Positions 2,283 through 24,676 of a DNA stretch of 64,000 nt are shown one piece after another (position 1 is the stretch's first letter; the number at the start of each line of letters is the position of its first letter). Origin of the DNA: an uncultured Pseudomonadota bacterium (GTDB lineage Bacteria; Oederibacteriota; Muellerivitia; Muellerivitales; Muellerivitaceae). The notes under the pieces are model-generated. The model saw only the letters and a list, made by a program, of their open reading frames with translations. It did no database searches and was not told the DNA's origin. The position numbers were made by a program, and so were the translations under genes. Where the stretch lies: the NCBI GenBank assembly GCA_963843375.1, contig CAWJKT010000009.1, positions 247,245 to 311,244 on the forward strand, given 5' to 3'.

Positions 2283-2310
2283 TGTCCACGGCGGGGAGGT
2301 ATAGTAAACA
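2283..2310. repeat. Array site 1 (variant): TGTCCACGGCG-GGGAGG-TATAGTAAACA
   Basis: Left arm matches the consensus; spacer and right arm resemble the site at 10747. Confidence 0.75.
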
Positions 2311-2475
2311 ATAATTTTTTCAATACCTTGGCTGCTTCTTCATCCTCATCCTGAACAAAAAGCGCTATTTATTATCAATTTTATTGTTGCCTCCCCTCCC
2401 CCCCACTACTAAACTTCCTCATGCTAAATTCTTTTCAACACCTTTAACCGCCCAATTCGAGTCAAAGATATTTCA

Positions 2476-3738
2476 ATGAAGATTCAAATCGTAGGGCTTT
2501 TTTCGCTTCTCGTTGGAGTCGGCTTTTTAACCCTCGGTTGTCCATCCAAAAGTAACAGCCCTTCTAGCCCAGCTGCGCCGACTAATATTTCCACTCCAAT
2601 CATTACCAATACGCCGACCAACACTAGCACCAACACCGCCACGGGAACGGCAACGGGGACACCAACCAAAACCGCCACACCTACCAGCAGCGGCACGCCT
2701 ACCAATTCGCCAACGTCCACTCCCTCGGGCACCCCGACCAACAGCGCTACGAATACCGCGACCGCGACGATCACTAACACGCCGACGATTACCCCCACAT
2801 CCACCCAAACGGGTACACCAACGAACAGCGCTACTGTTACGCCGACCTTTACGATAACGAGCACAGCGACCGTTACCGCCACCAGCACACCCACCAACTC
2901 GCTTAGCGCTTTCGCGACTATTGGCAGCGATGGTAAAACTTTATTTAACTATCCCATGGGTATTCAATACCTAGGAGGTTATTTATGGATGGCGGATACA
3001 AATGGCCTTGGGTCCCCGAATTTTCAAGAATGGGTCACGAATGGAACCAGTCCCGTGACGAACATGACAATTTATAATGGATCGGCATCGTTTCAGGCTC
3101 CCTGGGGTGTGGGCATTGATTCCGCCACTGGAAATGTCTATGTGACGGATGAAGTTGCGGGTCAAATTGATGTTTTCAACTCCGCCGGGACTTACCTTAC
3201 CAATTTTGGAAGCACCTATTTAGACAAGGGCTTCTTGGGCGTGGCCTTAAACTCGGCGGGGACGACGGTTTATGCTCTCACGTCAGATTCTATTATTTAT
3301 ATTGTTTCCGTTACCCCCGGTTCGATCCCCACTTATACCCTTCAAACAGGCTTTGGCCAATCGGGGTCTGTAGCATCGTATAAGCTTCTTTCCCCTCAAA
3401 ATTTGAGAGTAGACGGAAATGGATATGTTTGGGTGGCGGATCAAGGAAACCATCGAGTGGCGGAATACACCGGAGCGGGGATTTATAACCTCACATCCTT
3501 TATTACGGTAACCAGCCTTGCCAATCCTTTTATGCCCTCGGATGTATTGGTGGACAGCTCTGGTAACGTCTACGCTACGGATAATGAAAATAATTATGTC
3601 GTGGAATTTAATTCATCCGGCACGCAAATAGGCCAATTTGGGGAGGGGATTTTATATGGACCCAATGGCATTACCACGGATGGGGCTGGTAATTTTTACG
3701 TAACAGATTCAAGTCCTCAAATAGTGGGGTTTCATTAA
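2476..3738 (+). CDS. Lipoprotein with Thr/Pro stalk and NHL-repeat beta-propeller
   Basis: Lipobox FLTLGC, TPT repeats, NHL-like repeats ([65 protein letters not shown]). Confidence 0.85.
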
Positions 3739-3763
3739 GAATTAACTCAGAAGAAAGTTGGTC

Positions 3764-5092
3764 ATGAAGTTATACCTCATAGGGCTTGTTTCGCTTCTCC
3801 TTGGGATAGGCTTTTTAACCCTCGGCTGTCCTGGCAAAAATAATCCCTCCAGCCCCTCTGCACCTGCTCCTGTGCAAGCTACGCCCACTTTTACACAAGC
3901 TTGCTGGGTGGGTACTTCCCCTACTTGTACTCCGTACGTTACTCCGATTGGTATAACAACCCCAACCGGTTATTACGTGACCGGCACTGTTAACTATACC
4001 GGCTCTCGAGGATCGGTTAATTCAACGAATTATTTGTACGTGGCATTAGCGAATTCCAGTTTTAATTTCGTCTCGGGCGAAGATATTGCCATGAATGGCG
4101 GGACCTATCAAATTTACGCTTCTTCAGCAGGAACTTATTATCTAGGGGCATTTTATATTAACGTTAGTGAACCGCATATTTATTATCCCTCTACTTGTAT
4201 AGAACCTGGGGCGGGAATCACCATAAATGGGGGGGTTGCAGGAATCGATTTGTCATTTGGGGATAGTTGCACCTTTAGTACGCCATCTCCTACTCTTGGG
4301 TCGTCGACTTTGACCGCCACTCCTACCAACCAAACACCTGTCGCCACGCTGACCTTTACTCCGACGATCACGCCTACCTTCAACTACACTTGGACGGCAT
4401 CCAACACGCCGACGAATACCTACCCGCCGGGAACGAATACTCCCACCCGTGTGCCCACCAACACACCCACTCCAACACCTACCGGCACTTTAATCATTAT
4501 TTATCCGACCGCTACACCGACGGAAACGGACACCCCCACCGAAACCGAAACTTCGACCGTCACTGATACGCCGACGGATACCTGGCCGCCAGGAACGGAC
4601 ACGCCCACGGCCCAAGCCACGGATACTCCCACCGAAACGCCCACGGACACGGAATTTGAAGTCGACATACCGACCGGCACCCCTACAGATACTGAAACCG
4701 ATACGGCTACCCACACGCCCACTGAAACTGTTACCCCTACTCCCACGGTCACCGACACATCCACGATTACCGATACCCCCACCAATACGCCGACTCCTGG
4801 CGCCACCTATAGTGTTTATTTCACGGCATCGGGAACTGCCGGTGTCGAATATGAAATTGTTTACAGTTCTGTTATTTCCGGAGCGGTTACCGCCGTTGTT
4901 TATACAGGCACTTTAAACGGTGGGAATTGGACCTCCCCGACAGTCGATTTTCCTGGAGATACCGAAGTTGGTATTTCCGCCGGGGGTGTTACCAGCACAA
5001 ATTCAATTACGGTAAACCTTTATGTCGACGATGTTTTGGAAGGGACAGGTACTAGCTCCAGCGGCGCACCCGTTTCCTATCTATTGCCTTAA
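3764..5092 (+). CDS. Lipoprotein, paralog of 2476 and 13032, with an Ig-like module and acidic Thr/Pro repeats
   Basis: [31 protein letters not shown] leader; [10 protein letters not shown] module; TETPTDT repeats. ATG at 3764 chosen over TTG at 3758. Confidence 0.8.
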
Positions 5093-5241
5093 AATTAAAC
5101 CAAAACCCCAACTAGCTAAGCGGGGGAAGTTCGGCAAACTTCTGCCAAGGTAGGTGGGGAATACCCCCCCCCTTATGTCTGCTTTATTATGTAGGCTCAA
5201 GATTTTAAAATCTCTATCAACTAAAATATCTTGAATTTTAT

Positions 5242-5269
5242 TGTTCCATACGGGGACCCGGATTGGACA
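5242..5269. repeat. Array site 2: TGTTCCATACG-GGGACC-CGGATTGGACA; group II intron insertion target
   Basis: Same spacer, B-type right arm; the intron starts at 5270. Confidence 0.8.
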
Positions 5270-6052
5270 GCGTGCCAGGATCAAGGATGCAGCAGCCAGC
5301 AGGTGCGGTTCGATATGAACCAAGTCCTGACGGGGTAACCGCCCGAGGGCCCCGAAGTCAACCTCCGTGGCAAAGTCGAGAGGCCTTGTCCGAAACGAGG
5401 TCATAAACCTTCGAAAGGAAGGGAACAATACTACAGTCCGTAACATGAAGTGAATCCTGCCGCGTCGTGACGAGTCCGCCGAAAGGCTATAGGGGAGGCC
5501 GAGCCGCGTGTCCAACGGCGAAGGCAACAATCTCATCCTGAAACGGGATTGGGTGGGGTAAATCCTCCGGCGTATTGGGAGCGGAATGTTGGAAAGGCTG
5601 GTGCATCAACCTGGGAGATCCTACCCGTTAAAAGAGCGGCTCCTATAAGGGCGACCGAAAGGGAGACGTGACGGGAGGAAGTCGGAGGGGGAAATAGTAC
5701 CGCTTAGAGGGGGAGGACAACAAAACCTCACCTGAGGGAAGGTCCCCTGCTTCAACCATGTGCCTTCAAGAAGGGTGGCGCTGGAGAATGCCGGAAACGG
5801 CTAATAACTCTGAAGGTCAAAAGCGCGTAATCTTCAACAAGCACTATGCCGAACGGCCAAGGGAAGTAGAACCTGTAAAGCCGTCGGAGAAAAGGTTGTC
5901 GGAAAGCCGTATGATCGAAAAGGTCACGTACGGTTTGATGAGGGGGCGTTGGAAACGAAGTGATGAGGGAACCTAGTTGGGGCACGGAACCGGAAACGGG
6001 GAAACAGATCAAGGGGCCCTCTGCACACAACCGCGCCAGCGCTCTACTCTAC
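5270..6052 (+). mobile_element. Group II intron lacking an intact IEP (internal ORF deletion)
   Basis: 5' GCGTG (GYGYG-like) followed by CCAGG 5275-5279, which can pair with CCTGG 5610-5614 at the end of domain I. D3-like GGAAGTCGGAGGGGGAAATAGTACC...GAGGGAAGGTCCCC. D5 AAGCCGTATGATCGAAAAGGTCACGTACGGTTT (~5904-5936, AGC triad). Long D6 ending GCGCTCTACTCTAC at 6052. Confidence 0.92.
5788..5963 (+). pseudogene. Remnant of the intron-encoded reverse transcriptase/maturase: N-terminus fused to C-terminus
   Basis: GGAG RBS then MPETANNSE; shifted frame 5820-5963 reads KARNLQQALCRTAK (IEP N-terminal motif)...VVGKPYDRKGHVRFDEGALETK* (typical IEP C-terminus reading through D5). No RT motifs such as YADD remain. 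Confidence 0.75.
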
Positions 6053-6171
6053 AACAAATAATGGGCCGAATCCTTTGGTGATCCTCATGGGCAATAGGGG
6101 GTTGATTCGATTACTCCCGCAGTTAAAAATAACCGCGAAAACGAAAACGTTTTTTTCCTAAGGAGAAAACC

Positions 6172-6942
6172 ATGAAACAACCCGTCGTTATTGTTACCGG
6201 AGCCAGTCAGGGCATTGGTCGTGCCACAGCCATAAGACTAGCCGCTGATTTTAAGGCCGTGGTTCTCGGGGCCCGGAACGAGGAGGGCCTCAACGAGACG
6301 GCCAAGTCGGTCCAATCCGCCGGAGCGGAGCCCCTGGTCCTGCCGCTGGATTTACGCCAGGGCGAAGCAGCCAAGACCCTCGTGGACAAAACTCTGGAAA
6401 ATTTCGGCCGGATCGACGCTCTGGTAAACATAGCGGGGGCCGTGCCCCAAATCGACCTTTTGGAAATGACGGACGCCCAATGGGACGATGGAATGGCGCT
6501 CAAACTTCACGGCGCCCGGCGAGTGACAATTCATGCGTGGGAAGCACTGAAAAAATCCAAGGGTTCGGTGGTATTCACCTCGGGCAACTCGGCCCTGGCG
6601 CCCAAGTCGGCCTTTGCCGCCGTAGCCGTCACCAATGCGGCCATTGTGGCCTTGGCCAAAGCCTTCGCGGAACGGGGGATCAAGGATGGCGTTCAGGTAA
6701 ATAGTGTCCTGCCCGGGCCTGTGTTCACCAATCGCCGAAAAACCTACATGGAAAAATACGCCCCCCTGCACAACATGACAGTGGAAGAGGCGCTTGAAAA
6801 ATTTCCCGCCGAGGCGGGCATTACCCGATACGGTCAGCCAGAGGACATCGCTAACTTGATGGCGTTTTTGGTTTCCGCGGAAGGGAAGTGGATGACCGGC
6901 TCGGCAGTTCGAATGGACGGCGGCGAGATCAAGGCGGTCTAG
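6172..6942 (+). CDS. SDR family oxidoreductase
   Basis: TGASQGIG Rossmann motif, LVNIAG, VNSVLPG, MTGSAVRMDGG; AAGGAG RBS. Confidence 0.92.
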   Translation: MKQPVVIVTGASQGIGRATAIRLAADFKAVVLGARNEEGLNETAKSVQSAGAEPLVLPLDLRQGEAAKTLVDKTLENFGRIDALVNIAGAVPQIDLLEMTDAQWDDGMALKLHGARRVTIHAWEALKKSKGSVVFTSGNSALAPKSAFAAVAVTNAAIVALAKAFAERGIKDGVQVNSVLPGPVFTNRRKTYMEKYAPLHNMTVEEALEKFPAEAGITRYGQPEDIANLMAFLVSAEGKWMTGSAVRMDGGEIKAV

Positions 6943-6988: not shown

Positions 6989-7016
6989 TGTCCACAATGG
7001 GGACCCGTCGTGGACA
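6989..7016. repeat. Array site 3: TGTCCACAATG-GGGACC-CGTCGTGGACA
   Basis: Direct sequence match to the consensus. Confidence 0.9.
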
Positions 7017-7072
7017 AAGAAAAAGTATCGATTTGGATTTTTAAATGGGGGCAATTATTGAAGTTGCAAATA

Positions 7073-9181
7073 ATGAAAAGTAATAAAAGAACGATTATCA
7101 AAATTATTTCGGGTTTAGTTTTAGCAGTTGGAATTTCTTGGGCTGCTGCTACCCCCACTCCAAGTGGCCAAAACCAGGCCGAAATCCTTTGGGATAGTTG
7201 GGGCGTTCCCCACATCTATGCCACCAATGACACCAGCCTCTTCAAGGCTTTCGGGTGGGCTCAAATGCATAATCATTCAAAACTATTGCTCCATGACTAT
7301 GCCTTGGCCCGGGGCAAGGGGGCCGAATTTTTCGGCCAAGATGATTTGGTTTCCGATCGGTCCGTTCGATTGATGGGTCTATATCCAATCGCCCGTCAGT
7401 GGTACGCGCAACAAACCCCAAGGTTCCGCGCCGACTTGGATGCCTTTGCCGAAGGTATCAACCTCTATGGGCGGAACCCCAAAAACGGTTTGGATGCTGC
7501 GTCCCTAAAAGTTTTGCCGGTTGATGGAGTGGATGTCATGGCTCATGCCATTCGGATTATTTGGCATTTTCAGAGGGATCTGTCTCACATTAAATCAGGT
7601 TTGTCGAACGGAGAGTGGCTGGGCTCCAACGGTTGGGCCATCGCGCCCTCTCATTCTGCGGATGGTCACGCTATGTTATTAGCCAACCCCCATCTTCCCT
7701 GGAATGGGGAAAGAACCCTATTCGAGGCCGAGCTCAATTCCCCGGATTATCAGTGTTATGGCTCTGCCATAGTCGGAATCCCGATTCTTTCCATTGCGTT
7801 CAACGAGTCAATAGGATGGACCCATACGGTTAACACGATCAATCCCTGCTCCTTATACCAGCTTACTCCCGATGGAAAGGGCTATCGTTTTGACGGAAGC
7901 CACTTCAATTTTTCAGCCCATGTGGAAAAAATAAAGGTTCTCCAGGCGGATGGTTCCCTTAAGTCGGAGGATTTACTAGTCCGTAACGCAATCCAGGGCC
8001 CAGTGATCGAGGACAAAGGCCAACTCAAGGCCATTCGGGTAGCTGGCCTCCAATGCGGTTCTTACTCTGGAGCCATGGAACAATGGTGGAAAATGGGACA
8101 AGCCCGAAATCTAAGCGAGTTCCAATCCGCTTTGCGTTTAATGCAATTACCCATGTTCAATACAATTTACGCTGATTCCGATGGAAACATTTTTCTTTTC
8201 GACGGGGGATTGGTTCCTAAAAAGGGAAATGGAGATTTCTCCTTTTGGACTCGGCCTGTTTCGGGGGACACGAAAGAAACGGTTTGGGCGGATTTCATGG
8301 ATTACGATTCACTGCCAATGGCTTTGAATCCAAAGGCGGGTTGGGTCCAAAACTCCAACAGCGACCCCTGGTACATGACCCAGCCAATCCTCGACGGCCA
8401 TCTATATCCGCCCGATATGTCCGACATCCATGGATCTCCAAGTTTTCGTGAACAAAGGGGTATCCGGATGCTGACGGAAAGCGAAAAAATTTCTTACGAT
8501 CAACTAATCGCCGATAAGTTCTCCACCCGAAGCGAAATGGCGGACCATCTGGTTGACGATTTGGTGACCGCCGCTAAATCCCGTGGCGGGGAAACACTTC
8601 TTCGAGCCGCCGATGTTTTACGGAAATGGGACCGGTGTTTTGAAGATGATAGCCGGGGGGCGGTATTGTTTGAAGCCTGGAAAAATAGGGATTTTGTAAG
8701 CGGATGGCCCCTTTCGGTTCCTTTCGATTCAGCCCACTTTTTAGAGACACCACGAGGCTTCGCTAATCCAGGAAGGGATGCCCAAATCCTTGAGGACGCC
8801 GCAAAGGAAACAGAGTCGAAATACGCGCGGATGGATATCACTTGGGGTGAGGTTCATCGATTCCGACGTGGCAAATTTGACTTTCCAGCAAACGGCGGAT
8901 CGCCTAATTTGGGAATCTTTCGTTCTGTTTGGTATGACATGGATAAGGACGGTAAATACCTCGCTAATGGAGGCGATAGTTACATTGAGGCCATTGATTT
9001 TTCAAAACCATTGAAGGCTAGTGTTTTGTTGGCCTATGGGAATTCAAGCGATCCTGTTTCTCCCCATTATGGGGACCAATTGGAATTAGATTCAAAAAAA
9101 GAACTTCGACCCGTCTGGTTTTATCGCCAGGATGCTGAAGCTCACACAGTCGAGAAGTCAGTGATTCCGGGAGTTGAATGA
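7073..9181 (+). CDS. Secreted penicillin acylase family (Ntn hydrolase; cephalosporin/AHL acylase-like)
   Basis: Signal peptide; WDSWGVPHIYA; catalytic GSNGWAIAPSHSADGHAMLLANPHLPW; QNSNS; GGDSYIEAIDFS. The longer ORF start at 7010 overlaps the repeat site, so ATG 7073 is preferred. Confidence 0.9.
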   Translation: MKSNKRTIIKIISGLVLAVGISWAAATPTPSGQNQAEILWDSWGVPHIYATNDTSLFKAFGWAQMHNHSKLLLHDYALARGKGAEFFGQDDLVSDRSVRLMGLYPIARQWYAQQTPRFRADLDAFAEGINLYGRNPKNGLDAASLKVLPVDGVDVMAHAIRIIWHFQRDLSHIKSGLSNGEWLGSNGWAIAPSHSADGHAMLLANPHLPWNGERTLFEAELNSPDYQCYGSAIVGIPILSIAFNESIGWTHTVNTINPCSLYQLTPDGKGYRFDGSHFNFSAHVEKIKVLQADGSLKSEDLLVRNAIQGPVIEDKGQLKAIRVAGLQCGSYSGAMEQWWKMGQARNLSEFQSALRLMQLPMFNTIYADSDGNIFLFDGGLVPKKGNGDFSFWTRPVSGDTKETVWADFMDYDSLPMALNPKAGWVQNSNSDPWYMTQPILDGHLYPPDMSDIHGSPSFREQRGIRMLTESEKISYDQLIADKFSTRSEMADHLVDDLVTAAKSRGGETLLRAADVLRKWDRCFEDDSRGAVLFEAWKNRDFVSGWPLSVPFDSAHFLETPRGFANPGRDAQILEDAAKETESKYARMDITWGEVHRFRRGKFDFPANGGSPNLGIFRSVWYDMDKDGKYLANGGDSYIEAIDFSKPLKASVLLAYGNSSDPVSPHYGDQLELDSKKELRPVWFYRQDAEAHTVEKSVIPGVE

Positions 9182-9200: not shown

Positions 9201-9319
9201 TGTCCACGACGGGGACCCCTAAACCCTGAGTGGTTCGAGGGCCTCACCATCCGCGCTCAAAGGGTCGATGAACTCAGGGCAAATTATAGGTCGTCCAATC
9301 TGGGAACCCGTCGTGGACA
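9201..9319. repeat. Composite array site 4: A-left arm + GGGACC, 74-nt hairpin insert, then CGTCCAATCTG-GGAACC-CGTCGTGGACA (9292-9319)
   Basis: Direct sequence; insert has CCCTGAG (9224-9230) / CTCAGGG (9273-9279) inverted repeat. Confidence 0.85.
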
Positions 9320-9404: not shown

Positions 9405-9611
9405 ATGAAGACCAAGAAAAACGTCTTAACACTTATCAAAAAAATCGAGGCCCTTCCGGCCGACAAGATCAACGAGGTTGAGGATTTCGTAGAGTTCTTG
9501 GGTCACAAGGGCTCCGACAGGCAATTGACAAGGGCCGCCTCCAAACTTTCCGAAAGGTCGTTTGCCAAGGTCTGGGATAATCCCGAAGATGCCATCTACG
9601 ACAAGCTATGA
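9405..9611 (+). CDS. Antitoxin, DUF2281-like
   Basis: LIKKIEALPADKINEVEDFVEFL..VWDNPEDAIYDKL; overlaps the downstream PemK-like gene; TATAAT at 9392-9397. Confidence 0.75.
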   Translation: MKTKKNVLTLIKKIEALPADKINEVEDFVEFLGHKGSDRQLTRAASKLSERSFAKVWDNPEDAIYDKL

Positions 9612-9939
9612 TTTCGGGGATGTTCTCCTAGTCCCTTTCCCATTCTCCAACCAAACTGCCGTTAAGAAACGCCCTGCTGTTGTCGTCAGTTCAAGCACCT
9701 ACAACCTTTCTCGTCCTGACCTGATTATCCTGGCCCTTAGCAGCCAACCAGCAACTTCAAATGTGTTTGGGGGAACCAGCCTTTCCCACTGGAAAGGGGC
9801 AGGACTTTTGAAGCCTTCAGTTTTCAAGCCCATATTGGCCACGATTGAAAAGAGTTTGGTCATTCAAAAGCTGGGACGTCTTCATGCTAGCGATCAAAAG
9901 ACCCTCCAACAGATATTAAAAACAGTTATTCAGGTTTAA
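9589..9939 (+). CDS. PemK/MazF family toxin
   Basis: YDFGDVLLVPFPFSNQTAVKKRPAVVVS...GLLKPSVFKP. Confidence 0.88.
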   Translation: MPSTTSYDFGDVLLVPFPFSNQTAVKKRPAVVVSSSTYNLSRPDLIILALSSQPATSNVFGGTSLSHWKGAGLLKPSVFKPILATIEKSLVIQKLGRLHASDQKTLQQILKTVIQV

Positions 9940-9984: not shown

Positions 9985-10079
9985 GTGTTTTGAGGCCGCC
10001 GATTCAACCTTTGGTGTTTGAAGGATTCTTCTTTAGTGATATCATAATGTCATAAGTGTTATCACTTTGGAGGTCCCCT

Positions 10080-16832: not shown

Positions 16833-17420
16833 CTAAAGCCCTAAGCCTTGAAGAAAGGCTTCTGATTCACGCTCGAACTGTTCTCGTATGTATGAAATGA
16901 GGGCCATACGCCAAACACCCTGCAAGTAAGTAATGATGACCTTGGTAATTGTGCCGGTGTCATAACTTTTAGGAAGACGCCCTGCTTTCTTATCTTCATT
17001 GATCTTGTCTTCGATCAGTTTTTGAGTTTGATTTATCCTGGTAATAATAGCTTTTCTTAATTCGTTATCAGCCATAACGTCTTCGGAAAGCATCCCAGCG
17101 AACATGCAAATATTAGAAGGGCATTTGGGATCATCGAGACTGTCAAACATGGCGCTTAGCATGGCCCGCATCCCAAGACTTGTACTCGGGGCTGATGTCA
17201 GGGCAAGGCTTCTTTTTTTGCCTTCGATCTCCCCATACCTCTTCAAACATTCGATATAGAGGCGCTTTTTGCTTTTGATGGTATTGTAAAAGGAACCTTC
17301 CCCGATCTTCATCGCCTTCAGAAGGTCTCTTAGCGATGCACCAGAGTATCCGTCACGCCAAAAGACGCGCATCGCTTGATCCACTGCCTTATCGTAATCA
17401 AACTCCACTTTTCTAGCCAT
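16833..17420 (-). CDS. TetR/AcrR family regulator
   Basis: MARKVEFDYDKAVDQAMRVFWRDGYSGASLRDLLKAMKIGEGSFYNTIKSK. Confidence 0.92.
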   Translation of the reverse strand: MARKVEFDYDKAVDQAMRVFWRDGYSGASLRDLLKAMKIGEGSFYNTIKSKKRLYIECLKRYGEIEGKKRSLALTSAPSTSLGMRAMLSAMFDSLDDPKCPSNICMFAGMLSEDVMADNELRKAIITRINQTQKLIEDKINEDKKAGRLPKSYDTGTITKVIITYLQGVWRMALISYIREQFERESEAFLQGLGL

Positions 17421-17568
17421 GTCTCATTTTACCTCTGCGAAATATCTGAAGCAATCTATTTGTAGCAAATGTGACAATATCATTTGACTGCCGTGCCATT
17501 ATTCTGTAGCATGTGCTATAGAATTTAAGCGGAGATATTTCCCACGATGTTGTGGTTAGGAGACGAAA

Positions 17569-18462
17569 ATGAACGAAAGTATATTGATAACAGGAGCAAA
17601 TATTGGGCTTGGGAAAGAAACCGCCCGACAGTTAGCCCTGAAAAAAGAAACAAAAAAGGTAATTCTTTTTTGCAGAAATCAAGAAAAAGCCGAGGCAGCA
17701 AAAAAGGACCTTGAGGAGAAAACGGGAAAAAAGATTTTTGAAATTATTATTGGGGATGTTTCGGATGCGAATTCTGTAAGAAAAGCAGTAGAAAAAATAA
17801 AGGACCCTATTGATGCCGTCATTTTAAACGCAGGTGGAATGGTTGGGAAAACTGCTGCGCAAATCACACCCTCTGGCATGAATAATTTGGCCGCGACTAA
17901 TATTTTAGGTCATGTGGTTCTAGTGGATGAGCTTCTAAAACAAGATAAGTTAAAAAAAGTAGTACTATTTGTAAGTGCGGAAGCTGTACCGGGAGTAAAG
18001 CCTCTCGGAATGAAACCAGTTTCAATGAAGACTTCCTCTGTGGATGAGTTTGCTGCGGTTCTTGATGGTTCATTTTTTGGTAAAAAGTTCGATGTAACCC
18101 AAGCATACGGATACGTTAAATATGTAGGAACGATGTGGACGTTATCAATGGCAAGAAAATATCCTGATCTCAAATTTGTTGTTATGAGTCCCGGCAACAC
18201 AAAGGGAACTCTGGCACCGGATAACTTGCCCCAGCCTATGAGATTTATGTTGAAGTACGTAATGATGCCTATTGTGTTTCCATTGATGGGTGGAATGGTG
18301 CACGAGATAGAGGTAGGTGTAAAACGCCTCGTCGATGGCATTTCGGATGAGCGATATAAAAGTGGCGTTTTTTATGCGAGTAAAGAGGGTAAGCTATCGG
18401 GGGACGTGGTTGACCAGAGCACGTTTTTTCACTGCTTTGAAAAATACTACATTTCAAGATAA
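17569..18462 (+). CDS. SDR family oxidoreductase, divergent from TetR; possible frameshift in the T6 run near 18424
   Basis: ITGANIGLGKETA, ILNAGG, YGYVK; an alternative frame extends the C-terminus to a TAG just before the next ORF. Confidence 0.85.
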   Translation: MNESILITGANIGLGKETARQLALKKETKKVILFCRNQEKAEAAKKDLEEKTGKKIFEIIIGDVSDANSVRKAVEKIKDPIDAVILNAGGMVGKTAAQITPSGMNNLAATNILGHVVLVDELLKQDKLKKVVLFVSAEAVPGVKPLGMKPVSMKTSSVDEFAAVLDGSFFGKKFDVTQAYGYVKYVGTMWTLSMARKYPDLKFVVMSPGNTKGTLAPDNLPQPMRFMLKYVMMPIVFPLMGGMVHEIEVGVKRLVDGISDERYKSGVFYASKEGKLSGDVVDQSTFFHCFEKYYISR

Positions 18463-18501
18463 CGCTGATAAAGCAATTCACCGGAATATTGTGGCCTAGC
18501 G

Positions 18502-19140
18502 ATGAAAAAAGTGTTGGGTGAGCTAACTTGGGCCGCTTCTTATGTTTTTCTTGTCCTGGGATTCCGGGCTTGTCTTCATGCAGAAACGTCAACAAGTGAG
18601 GAATTGCTGGCTACCTATCCCCCCGCACAGTTTAAATTGGATTTCAAGGATGATGGGGAGCAGGATACGCTGACATTGACCTGCAAAAAGGTCAAAGATT
18701 ATTCGGTGGATCCTGATACGAAAGAGAAAATCTCGGAGAAAAAGTTTGTTTGGTATCAATTTCACATGACCATTGTTTCGCCAAACCATGAAACCCTCTG
18801 GGATGATACCTATTCAATTAAAGACGAGGATTACAGCGGGCTTTTTGAAAACTTCGATACCCCCTTCCTAACGCCAGCGGTTTATATAAAAAAATATTTT
18901 TCAGTGAAATTCAACCACATTGTAAATTGGAAAATAAGTAAAGATGAAATCGATGAAGATTTAATTAAACAAAAAATCAAAGACACGAAAGTGAAGGTTC
19001 GGGTGGAAGATGTTGAAAAAGAGATTCTTACTGGCAAGCATACTGTCGTATTTTACCGAGGTGACTGGGCGGTGGACTTGAGGCAGGCGGTGTATTCAAA
19101 AAAGCTTCGTAGTGCGGTTGGCTTAGCATGCCCTTATTAA
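18502..19140 (+). CDS. Hypothetical exported protein
   Basis: N-terminal hydrophobic signal-like segment; no family recognised. Confidence 0.6.
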   Translation: MKKVLGELTWAASYVFLVLGFRACLHAETSTSEELLATYPPAQFKLDFKDDGEQDTLTLTCKKVKDYSVDPDTKEKISEKKFVWYQFHMTIVSPNHETLWDDTYSIKDEDYSGLFENFDTPFLTPAVYIKKYFSVKFNHIVNWKISKDEIDEDLIKQKIKDTKVKVRVEDVEKEILTGKHTVVFYRGDWAVDLRQAVYSKKLRSAVGLACPY

Positions 19141-19149: not shown

Positions 19150-19176
19150 TGTCCACGGCGGGGAGCCTTCGTGGAC
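19150..19176. repeat. Array site 13 (27 bp variant): TGTCCACGGCG-GGAGCC-TTCGTGGACA
   Basis: Direct sequence; one base shorter than consensus. Confidence 0.85.
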
Positions 19177-19291
19177 AAGGAAATAAGGCAATAAACGGAT
19201 AAATGAATATCACCCTTTTAATAGTGAATTGGATAATTGGCCCGTTTGGAATACAATCTGAATAAGCTAATGTAAGCAAAGGGGAACGGTC

Positions 19292-19525
19292 ATGAGTCTC
19301 GCCGTCAAAGTACCTGTGGACCTTGAAAATCTTATCCAACAGCTTTCCGTGAAAGACAAAATCAAGCTGGCCCACGAGCTCGAAAGGCAGACCCGGCGCG
19401 AACGTTGGACCCCCCTTCTCAACCGCATCCAAAAACGGACGGCCAAAAATCCGGTCACTGATAAAGAAATAACTGCGATTGTCAAAGAAGCCAACCGGGA
19501 ATTACATGGCAAAGGCCGTCGTTGA
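19292..19525 (+). CDS. Putative antitoxin
   Basis: Small basic ORF overlapping a PIN toxin; ..PVTDKEITAIVKEANRE. Confidence 0.7.
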   Translation: MSLAVKVPVDLENLIQQLSVKDKIKLAHELERQTRRERWTPLLNRIQKRTAKNPVTDKEITAIVKEANRELHGKGRR

Positions 19526-19919
19526 TACCAATGTATTGATTGGTATTCTTCTCGGAAGCCATAATTGCCTGGCGGTGCGCGAGGCTTTCCTGGATGGCCT
19601 TTTTGACATCCTCATTTCACCTGAACTCGCCGCCGAGTTCATCATCACCTGCCAAAAACCAAAACTTTCCAAACTCATTCATCCTGGTGATGTCGCGGAC
19701 ACGATGGAGCTTTTAAAAAGCGATGCGGATTGGGTTGCTCCAAAAGTTAAAATCTTCGCAATCCGTGACCCCAAGGACAATCCCGTATTGGAATGCGTTG
19801 TCGCAGGGAAGGCCGATTTCATCATTTCGGGCGACAAAGACCTACTCGATCTCAAATCTTTCCGGAAAATTAAAATTATTAATCCTCGGCAATTTTTAAT
19901 GCTTTTGAAAAGGGCTTAA
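19506..19919 (+). CDS. PIN-family putative toxin
   Basis: AVVDTNVLIG, RDPKDNPVLECVVAGKADFIISGDKDLL. Confidence 0.9.
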   Translation: MAKAVVDTNVLIGILLGSHNCLAVREAFLDGLFDILISPELAAEFIITCQKPKLSKLIHPGDVADTMELLKSDADWVAPKVKIFAIRDPKDNPVLECVVAGKADFIISGDKDLLDLKSFRKIKIINPRQFLMLLKRA

Positions 19920-19927: not shown

Positions 19928-19955
19928 TGTCCACGACGGGGACCCCAAAGGAACA
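19928..19955. repeat. Array site 14 (degenerate right arm): TGTCCACGACG-GGGACC-CCAAAGGAACA
   Basis: Direct sequence; 9 bp after the stop codon. Confidence 0.8.
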
Positions 19956-20021
19956 ATAGTTTAAAGGCAAAAGGGATAGTAATTTGTTTGATGCAAATTT
20001 GGTATCATGTATAATACCAAT

Positions 20022-20450
20022 ATGAAACCATTGAGAATTGTACTGGACACCAACATTCTCGTCTCCGCTTTAAGGTCGCGCCTAGGCGCTTCGCACCAGT
20101 TATTATTGGCGGTGGGCGACAAACGGCTTCAACTTCAACTATCAGTGGCGTTGTTATTGGAATATGAGGCTGCCATTAAAAATCCCAATAGCGGCATCAA
20201 CCTTTCGGCGGATGAAAAAGACGATATCCTGGATTATCTCTGCGGTGAAGCGAAGCACTGTAAAGTGCATTACCTTTGGAGACCTTGCTTGAAAGACCCG
20301 GGAGATGACATGGTCCTGGAAGTGGCAGTTGCTTCGGAAGCAAGTGGGATTGTCACTTTTAACAGGCGGGATTTTAAAGGGATTGAGGCTTGGGGCCTAA
20401 AGATTTATACACCCCAGGAAATTTTGAAGATTTTAGGAGGCCATAAATGA
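20022..20450 (+). CDS. PIN-family putative toxin
   Basis: IVLDTNILVSAL, LLEYE, LKDPGDDMVLEVAV, IVTFNRRDF; TATAAT at 20010-20015. Confidence 0.9.
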   Translation: MKPLRIVLDTNILVSALRSRLGASHQLLLAVGDKRLQLQLSVALLLEYEAAIKNPNSGINLSADEKDDILDYLCGEAKHCKVHYLWRPCLKDPGDDMVLEVAVASEASGIVTFNRRDFKGIEAWGLKIYTPQEILKILGGHK

Positions 20451-20686
20451 GTGCCATTAGCTTGAGATTACCGAATAACCTTCACCGTTCCGTCCGGGAA
20501 TTGGCGGGAAAGGAACATGTTTCGATCAATCAAATGATCACCTTGGCCCTTGCGGAAAAAGTCTCAGCCTTGATGGCGGATGAATATTTGGGCCGCCGGG
20601 CCAAGCGTGGAAGCAAGGCGAAATTCCTCAAGGCGATGGGGCATGTTGAAAAAATCGAGCCAGAGGCCAAAGACAAGTTACGGTGA
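20447..20686 (+). CDS. Ribbon-helix-helix antitoxin
   Basis: MSAISLRLPNNLHRSVRELAGKEHVSINQMITLALAEK. Confidence 0.85.
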   Translation: MSAISLRLPNNLHRSVRELAGKEHVSINQMITLALAEKVSALMADEYLGRRAKRGSKAKFLKAMGHVEKIEPEAKDKLR

Positions 20687-20742: not shown

Positions 20743-20770
20743 TGTCCACGACGGGGACCCGGGGTGGACA
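20743..20770. repeat. Array site 15: TGTCCACGACG-GGGACC-CGGGGTGGACA
   Basis: Direct sequence. Confidence 0.9.
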
Positions 20771-21662: not shown

Positions 21663-21747
21663 TGTCCACGGCGGGGACCCCGTTCGGCTCCCTTTGGTCG
21701 CTCAGGGCAAATTATAAGTCGTCCAATCTGGGGACCCTGATTGGACA
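21663..21747. repeat. Composite array site 16: A-left arm + GGGACC, 40-nt insert, then CGTCCAATCTG-GGGACC-CTGATTGGACA (21720-21747)
   Basis: Direct sequence. Confidence 0.88.
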
Positions 21748-21812: not shown

Positions 21813-22727
21813 GTGTTTAAGTTATCAATGATATCAATTTTTATTTTTGCCGCACAAATCACGTTCGGCGGAGAACTTCAAGCAATAGTTTATTGTAGTG
21901 GTACTAATGAGGATGATTTGGGGTTGTGTAGTATCTCGCCCGAAGGTACAAAGCACTCCTGCTTAAATGATCGAGATCATTCACTTTTAAATAATCATTA
22001 TTCCTCTCCAGCTTGGAAACCCAAAAGCAAAGAACTTGTGGTCGAATACGCAAAACCTGATGGGGATCGAATACTGGAATTAATTGATGGCCTTGGGAAT
22101 AAGATTCGCGAAGTTAACAAATCCTTTAATTTTATGAGACCCGTTTGGAGCCCCGATGGGAGCCACATTTATGCGTTGAAGTATGGGATAGGGCCACAAA
22201 TAGGACAATGGGATTCAAATGGGATGAACTTTAAATTTGTACCCATTGTGGGCGCGCCTAACAACACGAACGCCCCTAATAGCCAAGGTGATTTTCAAAT
22301 GATTTCTTTCAGCCCTTCAGGGAAAAGCGTCGCTTTGCTCAACTACGGGTTCAAACAGATCATTGTAGCTAGTGTGAAAGAACAACAATTTGTCGCTCAA
22401 AAAGAACTTCCGACGAATTTTAATTACGTGGCCCAGTCGGCATGGCTTGATGAGAGTCATTTGCTATTTGTCGGGAGGTTAAATCCGGGGGCTGCCAATC
22501 TTTGGGAACTGAACATTGGGGATGGTTCTACGCGTTTAGTGGAAATTCCTAACCTTTCGCTTCAGGATTACTTTGCCCTCTCGCCGGATCGAAAATCAGT
22601 TGTTGTTTGCGCGACAGAAAAAAATCAAAATTTGTGTTGGAGTCTTTGGGAGTATTTGTTGGGTTCTCCCGCGGCCAAGAGACTTACAACAAGAAATCTG
22701 GATTCCGGCCCTACCTGGGGGGACTGA
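21813..22727 (+). CDS. Secreted TolB-like beta-propeller protein
   Basis: Signal peptide; SPAWKP, RPVWSPDG, SFSPSG, ALSPDR, GPTWG repeats. Confidence 0.7.
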   Translation: MFKLSMISIFIFAAQITFGGELQAIVYCSGTNEDDLGLCSISPEGTKHSCLNDRDHSLLNNHYSSPAWKPKSKELVVEYAKPDGDRILELIDGLGNKIREVNKSFNFMRPVWSPDGSHIYALKYGIGPQIGQWDSNGMNFKFVPIVGAPNNTNAPNSQGDFQMISFSPSGKSVALLNYGFKQIIVASVKEQQFVAQKELPTNFNYVAQSAWLDESHLLFVGRLNPGAANLWELNIGDGSTRLVEIPNLSLQDYFALSPDRKSVVVCATEKNQNLCWSLWEYLLGSPAAKRLTTRNLDSGPTWGD

Positions 22728-22747: not shown

Positions 22748-22832
22748 TGTCCACGACGGCGACCCCGTTCGACTCGCTAAGCTCGCTCAGGGCAAATGAT
22801 AGGTCGTCCAATCTGGGGACCCGGAGTGGACA
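22748..22832. repeat. Composite array site 17: A-left arm + GCGACC, 40-nt insert, then CGTCCAATCTG-GGGACC-CGGAGTGGACA (22805-22832)
   Basis: Direct sequence. Confidence 0.88.
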
Positions 22833-22871: not shown

Positions 22872-23801
22872 GTGTTGATGCAATTCTTCAGAATAGATAA
22901 AAAAATCATCCTTTTAGTGGTTTATGCACTTCTGCAAGCCATTGGGATGAACCATGGTGTTTGGGCAGATCCGGCAGGCGTGTCCACTTCAAAAATTCAA
23001 AATGACGATCCCTGCGAAGACTTTATTCGCCAATGGATTGACGGGAAAAATAAAACCATTCCAATCAAATTACGTGAGAGGATTCAAAAATATTTAGGGA
23101 AGGAAGTTCTCTATCCTCCGCCCATTTCCACAAAAGAGGCTCCCTTTTTTCTTCCGAAACCTAATGAAATACGGGCTAGTTTTAAAATGGTGCCCTATGC
23201 TGATGCAGAATACCAATATAAGATCGATTCTGAATTTATAGCCGCGGGGGACATGGTTGAAACGAGATATGGGAAATCACCCGTCACCTTCATGCTACAT
23301 AACGTCTTTTCTTCATTCATCCAAAACCATACTTACTTCCTGGTGAATTATGAGAAAGACGATTCGGAAACGGACTCAACCGAATATTACAACCTCTATT
23401 TGCAAACATCCCCAAAAGCAGTAAGTGAATTAGTTCACGGCGCTTCCCATATTGACTTTTTCACTCTTGGAAAAAATTCACCCATATTTGTGGTGGAGGA
23501 AAGCCAAACATTTGATGCACATTTCAAAGGTGGATTTTATCAGGTAAGGGGAGATGGAACCTTAAAAGAGTTGCAAAACTTGGAAGCCTTTAAAGTAAGT
23601 TGGGATATCGCTGATTTTGAGGGAAATGGTAATTCGGAACTCATGGTAAGTGAGGAGATGGACGTCCCCAAACGACCGACTGATTGTAAGGGACATGGAA
23701 CCTGTTTTTTTCGCGAAATGAAGATCAAAAAATGGGACGGCGTCCAATACGATACGATCGCAGATTATTTCTACATTGAACCCTGTGATGTTGTTAGATA
23801 G
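22872..23801 (+). CDS. Hypothetical exported protein
   Basis: N-terminal hydrophobic segment; DFEGNGNSEL FG-GAP-like loop. Confidence 0.6.
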   Translation: MLMQFFRIDKKIILLVVYALLQAIGMNHGVWADPAGVSTSKIQNDDPCEDFIRQWIDGKNKTIPIKLRERIQKYLGKEVLYPPPISTKEAPFFLPKPNEIRASFKMVPYADAEYQYKIDSEFIAAGDMVETRYGKSPVTFMLHNVFSSFIQNHTYFLVNYEKDDSETDSTEYYNLYLQTSPKAVSELVHGASHIDFFTLGKNSPIFVVEESQTFDAHFKGGFYQVRGDGTLKELQNLEAFKVSWDIADFEGNGNSELMVSEEMDVPKRPTDCKGHGTCFFREMKIKKWDGVQYDTIADYFYIEPCDVVR

Positions 23802-23815
23802 AAATAAATTAAAGT

Positions 23816-23843
23816 TGTCCACGGCGGGGACCTGTCGTGGACA
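23816..23843. repeat. Array site 18: TGTCCACGGCG-GGGACC-TGTCGTGGACA
   Basis: Direct sequence. Confidence 0.92.
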
Positions 23844-23941
23844 TGCAAAATGGGGCTAGACCTGACATTTCACCGGATTGCCACGGGGCCCCGGGTTTGA
23901 TATAAGTATGGTAAGTAGTGCCATACTATTGGGGAGGCGAA

Positions 23942-24139
23942 ATGAAAATTACAACCCATATTGACGAAGCTCTCTTACGGCAGGCGAAACGCAAAACGGG
24001 TATCGTTTCTCAACGGGAAATCCTGGAAACCGGCTTACGTAACTTATTGGCGGATATCCAAAGAAAAAGTTTCGTGAAGGATTTTGATAAGTTCCGCCTT
24101 GATCTCACACTCAATTCACTCAAAGGATCCAGGGGTTGA
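23942..24139 (+). CDS. vapB: VapB antitoxin
   Basis: MKITTHIDEALLRQAKRKTGIVSQREILETGL; GGAGG RBS. Confidence 0.85.
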   Translation: MKITTHIDEALLRQAKRKTGIVSQREILETGLRNLLADIQRKSFVKDFDKFRLDLTLNSLKGSRG

Positions 24140-24570
24140 ATCAGCTTTATCTGATTGACAGTTCGGCCTGGATTTTTGCGTTGGGTTCCAGGCCCCTGGA
24201 GGCCATACGAACGCGGGTGAAAGAATTGGTGGAAAACAATCTTGCAGCCATTACCTCACCTATCTTCTTCGAGCTTGTTTCTTCCGAAAAATCTCAGGCC
24301 CATTCGACACTATTGGCGGCGCATTTATCGGCCCTTCACCCTTTCCCCTTATTGCCAAATGAGTGGGCGGAGGCGGCCGAGTGGACTAGAGAACATCGCC
24401 AAAAAGGGCGTAAATTAAAAACGGTTGATGCTTTGATTGCCTTTAAAGCGTATAAACACAATCTGACCCTGGTTCACGCTGATGCGGACATGGACAGGAT
24501 TGCAAGCCATTCCAAATTGGAAGTGGAAAGCTATGTCCGGCAGGTTCGCTCTGTCCATCGGAGCAGTTAA
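24136..24570 (+). CDS. vapC: VapC PIN-domain toxin
   Basis: LIDSSAWI, IFFELV, TVDALIA, LVHADADM. Confidence 0.88.
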   Translation: MNQLYLIDSSAWIFALGSRPLEAIRTRVKELVENNLAAITSPIFFELVSSEKSQAHSTLLAAHLSALHPFPLLPNEWAEAAEWTREHRQKGRKLKTVDALIAFKAYKHNLTLVHADADMDRIASHSKLEVESYVRQVRSVHRSS

Positions 24571-24573
24571 AGT

Positions 24574-24601
24574 TGTCCATGGCGGGGAGGCGAAATGAAA
24601 C
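24574..24601. repeat. Terminal array site 19 (left arm and spacer only): TGTCCATGGCG-GGGAGG-CGAAATGAAAC
   Basis: Left arm is near consensus; 4 bp after the vapC stop; the right part equals the vapB RBS region. Confidence 0.7.
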
Positions 24602-24676
24602 ACTTTTGTTCTAGAGGTGTCTACCACCGGAAGCCTTCGAGTGAATTGCTGATCGAACAAAAGGATTCGAAAAAAA

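Follow-up and report, generated by a model that had tools for sequence, protein, structure and literature searches.

What kind of system is represented by this row of small gene units separated by short palindromes, and which enzyme could move them? Here, we examined a stretch of 64,000 nucleotides (the window), in which positions 2283-24601 are the larger part of one chromosomal mobile-cassette array of about 29.3-29.6 kb, a row of about 20 swappable cassettes separated by a 28-bp palindrome (Table 1). All 22 junction coordinates listed by the first-pass annotation were correct, each being a 28-bp site or half-site (chance expectation 0): 18 are full sites, three are left halves and at 24574 a left half continues into non-site sequence. 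With a strict pattern (up to 3 mismatches) 11 sites were found in the window versus 0 in 100 shuffles, and with a weight matrix 18 full sites, again versus 0 in shuffles. As annotated before, the 39 kb past the array (window 24.6-64 kb) contained no site by either the strict pattern or the genome scan. A scan of the whole genome, as had been proposed, yielded 87 hits (about 85 sites) in at least 7 clusters, compared with 2 in a shuffled genome; the sites form clusters and are not spread through core genes.

The left end of the array is not 2283, as first described, but C9:242535, 4.7 kb ahead of the window; its right end is window position 24601. At the same locus of the sister species the entire array is missing and one degenerate site is left, the flanks C9:225001-242542 and C9:272162-273087 being just 700 bp apart there. 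No recombinase gene was found in the window.

Table 1. Features of the array and its right flank (window coordinates; strand of a site denotes its polarity)
Feature	Position	Strand	Evidence or remark
Site, left half consensus, right half non-consensus (GGTATAGTAAACA)	2283..2310	+	weight matrix; right half and following 12 nt match site at C9:134162
Cassette: NHL-repeat protein gene (2476-3738), 444-aa ORF without assigned function (3758-5092)	2476..5092	+	
Site with degenerate arms	5242..5269	+	weight matrix
ORF-less group II intron, directly 3' of site	5270..6052	+	Rfam: RF02003 61.6 bits (5312-5448), RF00029 45.1 bits (5902-6052); 3' end alignable to second intron
Short-chain dehydrogenase cassette gene	6172..6942	+	
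Site	6989..7016	+	strict pattern, weight matrix
Penicillin amidase family cassette gene	7010..9181	+	
Composite: left half-site alone (9201-9219), 72-bp mini-element, full site (9292-9319)	9201..9319	+	full site by weight matrix; outer arms complementary to each other
MazF/PemK toxin cassette gene	9562..9939	+	
Site, B-type arms	9957..9984	+	weight matrix
RHH antitoxin and PIN toxin cassette	10056..10720	+	
Site, right half GGTGTAGTGGACA	10747..10774	+	strict pattern, weight matrix; right half identical to recombinase-proximal sites of metagenome loci L279, L280
VapB and VapC (PIN) cassette	10865..11456	+	promoter-like site at 10805-10833
Site, perfect consensus	11466..11493	+	strict pattern, weight matrix
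Cassette, BrnT-like and RHH	11494..12126	+	recurs in sister species' C2 array, other neighbours
Site	12127..12154	+	strict pattern, weight matrix
Cassette, BrnT and BrnA	12155..12751	+	recurs in sister species' C4 array (88% identity), other neighbours
Site	12752..12779	+	strict pattern, weight matrix
437-aa cassette gene, no assigned function	12984..14297	+	own intrinsic terminator 14337-14361
Site, inverted polarity (centre TC)	14562..14589	-	strict pattern, weight matrix
Site, perfect consensus	15262..15289	+	strict pattern, weight matrix
Antisense cassette: ArsR regulator, ORF without assigned function, DoxX-like protein	15321..16604	-	
Site	16695..16722	+	strict pattern, weight matrix
Cassette: TetR regulator (minus strand), SDR/epimerase, 212-aa ORF without assigned function	16833..19140	.	
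Site	19150..19177	+	strict pattern, weight matrix
Cassette: small ORF and PIN_3 toxin	19292..19919	+	
Site, right half CCCAAAGGAACA	19928..19955	+	weight matrix; right half similar to recombinase-proximal sites of G067, L277
Cassette: PIN_3 toxin and HicB/RHH antitoxin	20007..20686	+	
Site	20743..20770	+	strict pattern, weight matrix
Composite: left half-site alone (21663), 38-bp mini-element, B-type full site (21720-21747)	21663..21747	+	full site by weight matrix
Beta-propeller (PD40) protein cassette gene	21813..22727	+	
Composite: left half-site alone (22748), mini-element, full site (22805-22832)	22748..22832	+	full site by weight matrix
309-aa cassette gene, no assigned function	22872..23801	+	
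Site	23816..23843	+	strict pattern, weight matrix
Final cassette: PIN toxin and small ORF	23918..24570	+	
Terminal hybrid site: consensus left half fused to chromosomal, non-site sequence	24574..24601	+	array right end
First core gene past array	24919..25836	+	sister ortholog 93% identical, adjoins empty locus

The junctions had been read as two 11-bp arms around a 6-bp spacer. A 13-2-13 layout, TGTCCACGACGGG-GA-CCCGTCGTGGACA, describes the site better. GA is the sole built-in asymmetry of the palindrome, so the supposed spacer GGGACC, which is strictly conserved among sites, is itself symmetric except for its two central bases. The conserved unit spans 28-30 bp, with inner arms rich in G+C and flanks lacking conservation. 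The site at 14562 is reversed in polarity (centre TC). Each of 80 metagenome loci (235 sites in all) was uniform in polarity. Across 316 cassettes the site follows the stop codon at a median of 21 bp, in line with the 4-60 bp given earlier for most sites, and 92% of cassette ORFs have the polarity of their site. The perfect consensus folds into a 12-bp stem with a 4-nt loop (z = -5.2). No T-run was found 3' of the sites, only one of the 16 full sites scanned between window positions 6000 and 25000 was called terminator-like, and arm complementarity among 417 sites revealed neither covariation nor excess that would indicate selection on the stem. These sites are neither terminators nor REPs.

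The cassettes are mobile. Two neighbouring cassettes of the window (11466-12127 and 12127-12752) are found in separate arrays of the sister species, and homology stops at the sites. Among 328 cassettes we identified 69 homologous pairs, some of them 100% identical yet in differing contexts. The point of exchange was mapped with pairs that were at least 95% identical and differed in context. At the upstream site, differences lay at positions up to 11 in 4 of 7 pairs (two had none and one had them on both sides); at the downstream site, they lay at positions from 16 onwards in 6 of 9 (of the remaining pairs, one had none, one an extra single difference at position 10 and one differences on both sides). 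Sequence thus switches between near-identical cassettes at site positions 12-15, each edge of this interval being set by one informative pair, which indicates that exchange is site-specific and central; in pairs that are 88-95% identical, differences also occur in the right arm expected to move with the cassette. The left and right halves of 417 sites pair as shuffled halves do, i.e. they assort independently. The observation in the first-pass annotation is confirmed and its interpretation partly supported: a capture and shuffling array agrees with the absence of the array from the sister species, in which the shared cassettes belong to different arrays, while the proposed type of recombination site is not supported.

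The best candidate for the exchanging enzyme is a short serine recombinase of 275-283 aa. It has a Resolvase domain and a complete PF07508 domain, and lacks PF13408 (no zinc ribbon); its copies are about equal in length and 68-77% identical. The gene is under purifying selection (dN/dS 0.08-0.16, about 0.1, with synonymous sites saturated) and is linked to the sites. Ten copies were examined, five from 31 family genomes (4 genera) and five from metagenomes (5 unrelated samples). All ten have a site of opposite polarity after the stop codon, at 8-36 bp in nine and 114-164 bp in one; an array follows in eight loci, and the other two show proximal site(s) only. Gene-bearing genomes have 52-131 site hits versus a median of 14 in the rest (Mann-Whitney p = 0.001). 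In a set of 176 ORFs that flank arrays, the one site-specific recombinase family to recur is Resolvase, at 3' ends only; a group II intron reverse transcriptase appears twice. The suggestion that the array has its own recombinase is not supported for the window array, beside which there is none: the single copy in the genome (C9:137160-138005) lies 109 kb upstream and adjoins another array, so the window array would be served in trans.

On the other hand, the short recombinase may be just an unusual passenger at array ends. It is missing from 26 of the 31 family genomes, including the one with most sites (G018, 99% complete) and four others (G064, G066, G005 and G010; 89-99% complete) with 51-74 pattern hits each, in which one site may count on both strands. 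Natural small serine recombinases usually require accessory sites and carry out resolution only, and a bare 28-bp site is unusual as a target for free integration. We know of no experimentally studied serine recombinase that lacks the zinc ribbon in this way.

The best explanation, and in our view a probable one, is a serine-recombinase cassette array with central exchange, with the short recombinase as the likely enzyme. A cassette would run from a right half-site through a leader of ~50 bp, a gene or small operon and a further ~20 bp to the left half of the site that follows, and conservative site-specific recombination would excise, insert and reshuffle such units. Strands would be exchanged within GGGA, the central 4 bases of the palindrome; since the central GA is non-palindromic, it gives the site a polarity and the sites of an array point one way. 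A recombinase dimer is predicted to bind both 13-bp half-sites and cut at GA with a 2-base stagger, after which subunits would rotate and the DNA be resealed. The protein, restricted to this bacterial family, combines the catalytic and 'recombinase' domains of large serine recombinases without their zinc-ribbon and coiled-coil domain. Its gene is always convergent to an array, with the stop codon near the last site; the half of that site proximal to the gene is non-consensus, and the position is comparable to that of attI beside intI. The literature searched contained no published description of such a system, consistent with the earlier suggestion that it may be undescribed.

One alternative, which we consider unlikely, keeps the cassettes and the central exchange and assigns the activity to another trans-acting recombinase, chromosomal or plasmid-borne, with the short recombinase as a mere passenger prone to occupy array ends. 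In favour of this, the short recombinase is absent from most site-bearing genomes, plasmids are frequently missing from MAGs, and a different serine recombinase of 229 aa adjoins the L109 array and has two copies in G018. However, the short recombinase is linked to sites in all ten copies, from 4 genera and 5 unrelated samples, its gene is under purifying selection, its presence correlates with site number, and no second site-specific recombinase family recurs beside arrays.

A tyrosine recombinase acting on 11-6-11 core sites, whether a host enzyme of Xer type (cf. Acinetobacter pdif) or an island integrase of ~370 aa, is improbable in spite of the 28-bp length and strictly conserved GGGACC centre of the sites. 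In layout they agree with the 28-bp crossover site of serine resolvases, and exchange is confined to the 4 bases at the centre (positions 12-15), so this reading is unsupported; the 'spacer' is palindromic save for 2 bases, and only a serine recombinase is consistently joined to the sites. As the first-pass annotation stated, the sites are not dif-like: the host Xer-like gene carries a unique, AT-rich palindrome of its own that is dif-like and shows no relation to them. The ~370-aa integrases are confined to the same bacterial family, their copy number tracks the sites (rho 0.74) and a degenerate site lies within 3.5 kb of 3 of the 6 copies in this genome. But genome size accounts for this correlation (rho 0.78 and 0.81), these integrases lie at tRNA genes and are accompanied by excisionase genes, no site occurs within 6 kb of 15 further copies, and the co-occurring tyrosine recombinase sought beside the G001 arrays was not found there.

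Exchange might also depend on extruded stem-loops whose loop is cut by an HUH (RayT/Rep-like) or host hairpin nuclease before sites are joined. The exchange window coincides with the loop of the folded perfect consensus, group II introns, which are often located after stem-loops, target the sites, one end of L109 carries a RayT-like gene, and Y1 proteins of ~318 aa are common in the family. We regard this as very unlikely, given that arm complementarity lacks covariation or excess, that G000, G018 and G064 lack Y1 transposases, whose number does not follow that of the sites (rho 0.30), and that the RayT-like gene occurs in just 2 of 109 array loci. Hardly tenable is a REP-like or RNA 3'-end hairpin (terminator or stabiliser) on accessory genes, with ordinary island turnover producing the cassette pattern: the median distance past the stop codon and the orientation of most sites would fit, but T-runs are absent and terminator-like calls rare, the stem is not under selection, the sites cluster instead of spreading through core genes, and homology breaks precisely at site centres, which already contradicts it. 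An atypical integron, or an attC cluster that lost its integrase (CALIN), can be dismissed despite a cassette organisation and abundance of toxin-antitoxin cassettes as in sedentary chromosomal integrons, since no integron integrase scored above the curated cut-off in any of the 31 family genomes and the 28-bp sites, as previously recognized, are not attC (no R/L boxes, GTTRRRY motif, extrahelical bases or conserved flanks).

No described attC or pdif family fits the sites, although several known systems share features with this one. Acinetobacter pdif modules (XerC/XerD; PMC6449649, PMC13141974) also have 28-bp sites around small accessory modules, often toxin-antitoxin, that are shuffled between replicons with no dedicated recombinase adjoining; pdif sites, however, resemble the host dif and alternate in orientation, whereas the present ones are co-oriented, chromosomal and not related to the dif-like site of the host. 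Among small serine resolvases and invertases, those of Tn3 and gamma-delta exchange strands centrally in crossover site I of res, a dyad-symmetric 28-bp site that binds a dimer and takes its polarity from a central dinucleotide (PMC2602789). In contrast to res, accessory sites II and III are absent here, the sites bound cargo genes instead of resolving cointegrates, and the candidate binds DNA through a PF07508 recombinase domain instead of a small helix-turn-helix. The outer bases of resolvase half-sites start TGTC, as they do here, but G+C-rich inner arms like the present ones are not typical of resolvase sites. The best family matches of the short recombinase are CcrB and CcrA, far under their cut-offs, and its closest full-length relatives are integrases of ~520 aa (55-60% identity), mostly beside tRNA genes. 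SCC/SCCmec elements (CcrA/CcrB) similarly accumulate in tandem with repeated sites between them; unlike these, the present sites are of a single kind and not attL/attR pairs, and arrays occur at many loci and not at a single attB. Large serine recombinases distinguish attP from attB via the zinc-ribbon and coiled-coil domain, which the candidate lacks.

The closest parallels in organisation are those with integrons (PMC4889954): arrays of mostly single-gene, co-oriented cassettes, each terminated by a recombination site, many toxin-antitoxin cassettes, cassettes common to several arrays, some arrays without an adjoining recombinase, and a non-consensus site beside the recombinase gene. Group II introns home to the sites in both (cf. 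group IIC-attC introns, PMC3001079). On the other hand, there is neither IntI nor attC here, a simple 28-bp palindrome serves as the site and shows no sign of selection for a folded form, the candidate is a serine recombinase encoded convergently at the array 3' end whereas intI diverges from the 5' end, and each genome has many arrays. The array is thus integron-like in its working and made of unrelated parts.

Using the pattern TGTCCACGRCG-N6-CGYCGTGGACA with at most three mismatches, we found 11 matches in the window and none in 100 shuffles. A weight matrix derived from site copies genome-wide identified 18 full sites between window positions 2283 and 23843; the four other positions that the first-pass annotation had listed with them turned out to be left halves only. 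Neither pattern nor matrix had a match in the 39 kb of core genes downstream of the array, in line with the earlier reading of this region. The proposed matrix scan of the genome and its relatives gave 87 matches in the source genome (a 4.05-Mb draft in 32 contigs, in which the window is C9:247245-311244) vs 2 in the shuffled genome, forming at least seven clusters with uniform polarity within them. Among 99 genomes of the phylum, the site was limited to one family, of whose 31 members 28 contain it. Pattern matches range from 0 to 169 per family genome (one site may count on both strands), or 0 to roughly 85 sites, and the other 68 genomes essentially lack the site. In addition, 80 metagenome loci contained 235 sites, with uniform polarity inside each locus, and a search of known plasmids and phages did not find the site sequence. 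Coordinates of the features discussed here are collected in the table.

Locations of the array and associated features (C, contigs, C9 being CAWJKT010000009.1; L, fetched loci, many of them metagenomic; G001, sister species of the same genus)
Feature	Location	Remark
Array of the window	C9:242535 to window 24601	starts right after a core-gene stop codon
Left halves only	window 9201, 21663, 22748, 24574	
Inverted-polarity site	window 14562-14589	
Intrinsic terminator	window 14337-14361	3' of a 437-aa cassette gene
Mini-element, three copies	window 9220-9291, 21682-21719, 22767-22804	38-72 bp, each ending in CTCAGGGCAAATKATARGT
Group II introns at sites	window 5270-6052; L027:2165-4106 (= C9:135165-137106); L121, L242, L247-L251	window copy without ORF
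Second palindrome family	L109:2877-2904, L109:10992-11019; C6:18567, C6:57734 (source genome); L178:164; L120:1027	CTGTAACGCTTCG-NN-CGAAGCGTTACAG
Short serine recombinase	C9:137160-138005	source genome, 281 aa
Decayed recombinase-proximal junction	L027:1190-1290 (= C9:134190-134290)	the ~100 bp past site C9:134162
Xer-like gene	C10:182366-183469	
Palindrome at Xer-like gene	C10:182387-182414	ATTTCATATAA-CTATAA-TTATATGAAAT
tRNA-island integrase	C9:31181-32290; L260:6040-7146 (G001)	
Recombinase trio	C8:95063-98359	431, 340 and 423 aa
Y1-DnaA protein	L109:32-934	300 aa

Only 28-30 bp of the site are conserved. Information content falls to zero 1-2 bases beyond the 28-mer, and therefore attC-like flanks are absent. 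The site is a 13-2-13 palindrome, and its reverse complement differs solely at the central GA/TC; the one window site of opposite polarity is simply a site turned round. This site, the only inverted one of the array, lies 200 bp past the true intrinsic terminator of the 437-aa cassette gene, and the adjoining genes are not inverted. We also noticed a mini-element, each copy of which is flanked by a left half-site on one side and a B-type site (an arm variant) on the other. It had no match among the 273 loci fetched up to that search, and may represent a small RNA or a cassette that is empty or decayed.

The 316 distinct cassettes have a median length of 750 bp. The start codon lies a median of 52 bp behind the preceding site and the stop codon a median of 21 bp ahead of the following one, and the longest ORF shares the polarity of the site in 92% of cassettes. 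In the array of the window, toxin-antitoxin cassettes include VapBC-type pairs, two BrnT/BrnA pairs, MazF and PIN_3 with HicB/RHH, and promoter-like sites are present within some cassettes of this type. The other cassettes carry two short-chain dehydrogenases, a penicillin amidase, an antisense ArsR/DoxX unit, TetR, NHL and PD40 propellers and several unknown proteins.

Comparison with relatives revealed that these cassettes are mobile. In G001, the sequences flanking the array, C9:225001-242542 on the left and C9:272162-273087 on the right, are only 700 bp apart, and a degenerate site plus one unrelated ORF replace the 29.6-kb array; in a genome of another genus, the same gene of the right flank has a site 160 bp upstream. 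The left junction in the source genome is a hybrid of a chromosomal left half and a consensus right half, and the right end is its mirror image. The cassette order and content of relatives, whose comparison had been suggested in the first-pass annotation, differ from those of the window: two neighbouring cassettes (11466-12127 and 12127-12752) were found in two different arrays of G001, with similarity beginning and ending at the sites. Among 328 cassettes from the source genome, four relatives and the metagenome loci, we identified 69 homologous pairs, most of which had unrelated neighbours, and one pair was 100% identical in two arrays of G001. The absence of the array from its G001 locus, together with the recurrence of cassettes beside other neighbours and with homology bounded by sites, bears out the original proposal of a capture and shuffling array.

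The point of exchange was mapped by comparing cassettes at least 95% identical in different contexts. At upstream sites, differences fell solely at positions up to 11 in four of seven pairs (two showed no difference and one differed on both sides), and at downstream sites solely at position 16 or beyond in six of nine pairs (one had none, one an extra difference at position 10 and one differed on both sides). Given where these differences fall, each cassette moves together with the half-sites that adjoin it, a right half at its upstream end and a left half at its downstream end. The sequence switch sits within positions 12-15 (GGGA), each edge of this interval being set by one informative pair. 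Pairs that are 88-95% identical differ in the inner right arm too and are not fully accounted for by the model. The site has the layout of a serine-recombinase crossover site, i.e., a dyad of ~26-30 bp with an asymmetric central dinucleotide (here 13-2-13 with centre GA) to whose central positions exchange is limited. Homologous recombination between the 28-bp repeats, which would allow exchange along the repeat, was ruled out because the switch is confined to positions 12-15 and stays in these central bases in the informative pairs.

A role for the sites as folded structures was also considered. As single-stranded DNA, a perfect-consensus site folds well (z = -5.2). Across 417 sites with unique contexts, pairing between left and right arms equalled that of randomly re-paired halves, and fully complementary inner arms were observed in 18.2% of sites vs 16.9% expected. 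Thus, left and right halves combine independently of each other, as expected under the cassette model, and selection does not act on the stem. The CGACG inner arm was present in 57% of left arms vs 27% of right arms, and the left inner arm was far less variable, which implies that the two halves are not equivalent in function. Intrinsic terminators, which are G+C-rich hairpins with a T-run behind them, were excluded in the absence of a conserved T-run: of the 16 full sites in window 6000-25000, just one was called terminator-like, through a chance tail on the other strand, and bases downstream of the sites are not conserved. The REP/RAYT reading was ruled out since the sites cluster in accessory arrays and are not scattered in the core genome.

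It had been expected at first that the array would come with its own recombinase, probably of the tyrosine type. This part found no support, as the window is devoid of recombinases and no tyrosine family recurs at array ends. The 176 ORFs within 3 kb outside arrays are mostly assorted housekeeping genes. Of the site-specific recombinase families, Resolvase alone recurred in this set, and only at 3' ends; the reverse transcriptase of group II introns was seen twice. No tRNA remnant was found at the left junction of the array.

Several candidate enzymes were rejected or set aside. A 229-aa serine recombinase beside the array of L109, unrelated to the short one described below, belongs to a plasmid/phage resolvase family and was retained solely as a candidate for a second enzyme; G018 is the one genome of the 31 in the family that has it, in two copies, neither adjoining sites. 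The second family of 28-bp 13-2-13 palindromes brackets the L109 array and stands between its last site and this recombinase gene, and degenerate members lie 3' of the gene in G018. The ~370-aa integrases, with six paralogues of the tRNA-island type with excisionase genes in the source genome, have the same taxonomic range as the sites, and their copy number tracks site number (rho 0.74), a correlation that results from genome size (rho 0.78 and 0.81). They were rejected because the link to sites seen in the source genome was not reproduced in 15 further copies, none of which has a site within 6 kb. The tRNA-island integrase family, almost confined to this bacterial family, reaches 8 copies per genome; one protein is 100% identical between the source genome and G001, the species' core protein being 93% identical, which suggests recent transfer. 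Three adjoining tyrosine recombinase genes form a separate "recombinase trio" element, and similar trios are present in several relatives.

The host Xer was discarded as well, since its own dif-like palindrome is unrelated to the cassette site. This unique AT-rich 11-6-11 palindrome overlaps the start codon of the sole Xer-like gene and is likely, or at least plausibly, the dif site of this phylum in a XerS/difSL-like arrangement. No dif of the E. coli or Bacillus type was found, and the earlier statement that the cassette sites do not match dif agrees with both results. RayT/Y1 transposases do not track site number: PF01797 was not found in three genomes (G000, G018 and G064) and showed no correlation. 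A protein of L109 combines a Y1 (IS200/RayT-type) transposase domain with a DnaA C-terminal helix-turn-helix, and its ~318-aa relatives reach about 14 copies per genome in some members of the family. For the integron integrase (TIGR02249), nothing exceeded the 265-bit cut-off, the best scores being 47.5 bits in the source genome and 84.5 bits among the 31 family genomes.

A linked recombinase gene was found outside the window, 109 kb upstream. This 281-aa serine recombinase and its 278-aa counterpart in G001 are both convergent on an array, with 33-36 bp between the stop codon and the last array site. The 80 homologs in other phyla (53-60% identity) are all longer, most about 520 aa, and most adjoin tRNA genes. 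These longer homologs and the ending of the gene at a site led us to read it first as a dead, truncated large serine recombinase, a view that was dropped on the basis of the family census, the alignment and dN/dS. In the census of all 31 family genomes, the short form was also present once each in G067, G072 and G069, and hence in four genera; five more copies were located on unrelated metagenome contigs. The five genome copies are intact, collinear and 68-77% identical, with dN/dS of 0.08-0.16 (synonymous sites saturated). The short clade is represented in the protein database by 19 clusters (275-283 aa, 68-96% identity), sharply apart from longer relatives at 58% or less. It has the catalytic domain (PF00239) and a complete PF07508, and lacks the zinc ribbon (PF13408).

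All ten copies have an opposite-polarity site after the stop codon (nine at 8-36 bp, one at 114-164 bp), and in eight of them more co-oriented sites and convergent cassette genes lie beyond this proximal site. Genomes bearing the gene have 52-131 site matches, whereas the median of the others is 14 (p = 0.001). The recombinase-proximal half-sites depart from the consensus (e.g. CCCAAAAGGAACA and GGTGTAGTGGACA), and their types recur in the window at 19928, 10747 and 2283; no remnants of the gene were found after window sites 19928 and 24574. A stretch following site C9:134162 shows homology to the 3' end of the coding sequence of the short recombinase and is a decayed second copy of the recombinase-proximal junction; its first 22 nt are shared by window site 2283.

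In large serine recombinases, as known from integrase-attP structures, the recombinase domain touches the inner half-site and the zinc ribbon its outer part. By analogy, lack of the zinc ribbon would lead one to expect a site of about 26-28 bp for the short recombinase. In Tn3 resolvase, strand exchange takes place at the centre of a 28-bp site (PMC2602789). Twenty-six of the 31 family genomes, including G018, the richest in sites, have no short recombinase, and their arrays may be orphans, or they may depend on unbinned plasmids or on a different enzyme.

Group II introns of two lineages home to the cassette sites, with 11 intron reverse transcriptase genes in 8 array loci. Introns of the first lineage (8 copies bearing reverse transcriptase and the ORF-less copy in the window) start 0-2 nt past the right arm, and those of the second are inserted inside the site, at the boundary between left arm and centre.

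Integrons are the textbook platform for stockpiling and reshuffling genes. All known integrons rely on one clade of tyrosine recombinases and folded attC sites. On balance, we lean towards the view that the integron principle was invented independently in one family of a phylum of uncultured soil and peat bacteria: a minimal serine recombinase, descended from a tRNA-targeting large serine recombinase that lost its zinc ribbon, would capture cassettes at bare 28-bp sites, stack them, and excise and reshuffle them, acting in trans on many arrays per genome and using the gene-proximal site as entry point. If so, the cassette-array solution would have evolved more than once, here with a serine recombinase and a plain palindrome, and much of the turnover of accessory genes in this abundant, uncultured lineage of soil bacteria would be explained. 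The short recombinase would then be a naturally "deregulated" serine recombinase for which a 28-bp site is sufficient, and such a small enzyme with a short, simple target would be of interest for genome engineering.

Our literature searches found no description of such arrays. Like integrons and CALINs, they consist of co-oriented, one-site cassettes that move independently and are common to different arrays, but they have neither IntI nor attC. attC sites are imperfect hairpins of ~55-140 nt that contain extrahelical bases as well as R''/L'' and L'/R' boxes (RYYYAAC...GTTRRRY), whereas the cassette sites have no AAC/GTT boxes, uninformative flanks and arm pairing not above chance; their short conserved core, the missing boxes and the lack of IntI in the 31 family genomes uphold the first-pass annotation, in which they were not regarded as attC. 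The sites of pdif/Xer modules resemble the host dif and alternate in orientation between neighbours, unlike the cassette sites with their uniform polarity. REP/RAYT elements are palindromes scattered in core intergenic regions and accompanied by RAYT, whereas the cassette sites cluster in accessory arrays. Large serine recombinases of the phage integrase/Ccr type have a C-terminal zinc ribbon and coiled coil (PF13408) and use attP and attB sites that differ from each other; the short recombinase, at 275-283 aa vs about 520 aa for its full-length relatives, is missing PF13408. The homing of group II introns to cassette sites parallels that of the group IIC-attC introns of integrons. The system thus acts like an integron, yet by homology it belongs neither to integrons nor to pdif modules, REP/RAYT elements or large-serine-recombinase islands.
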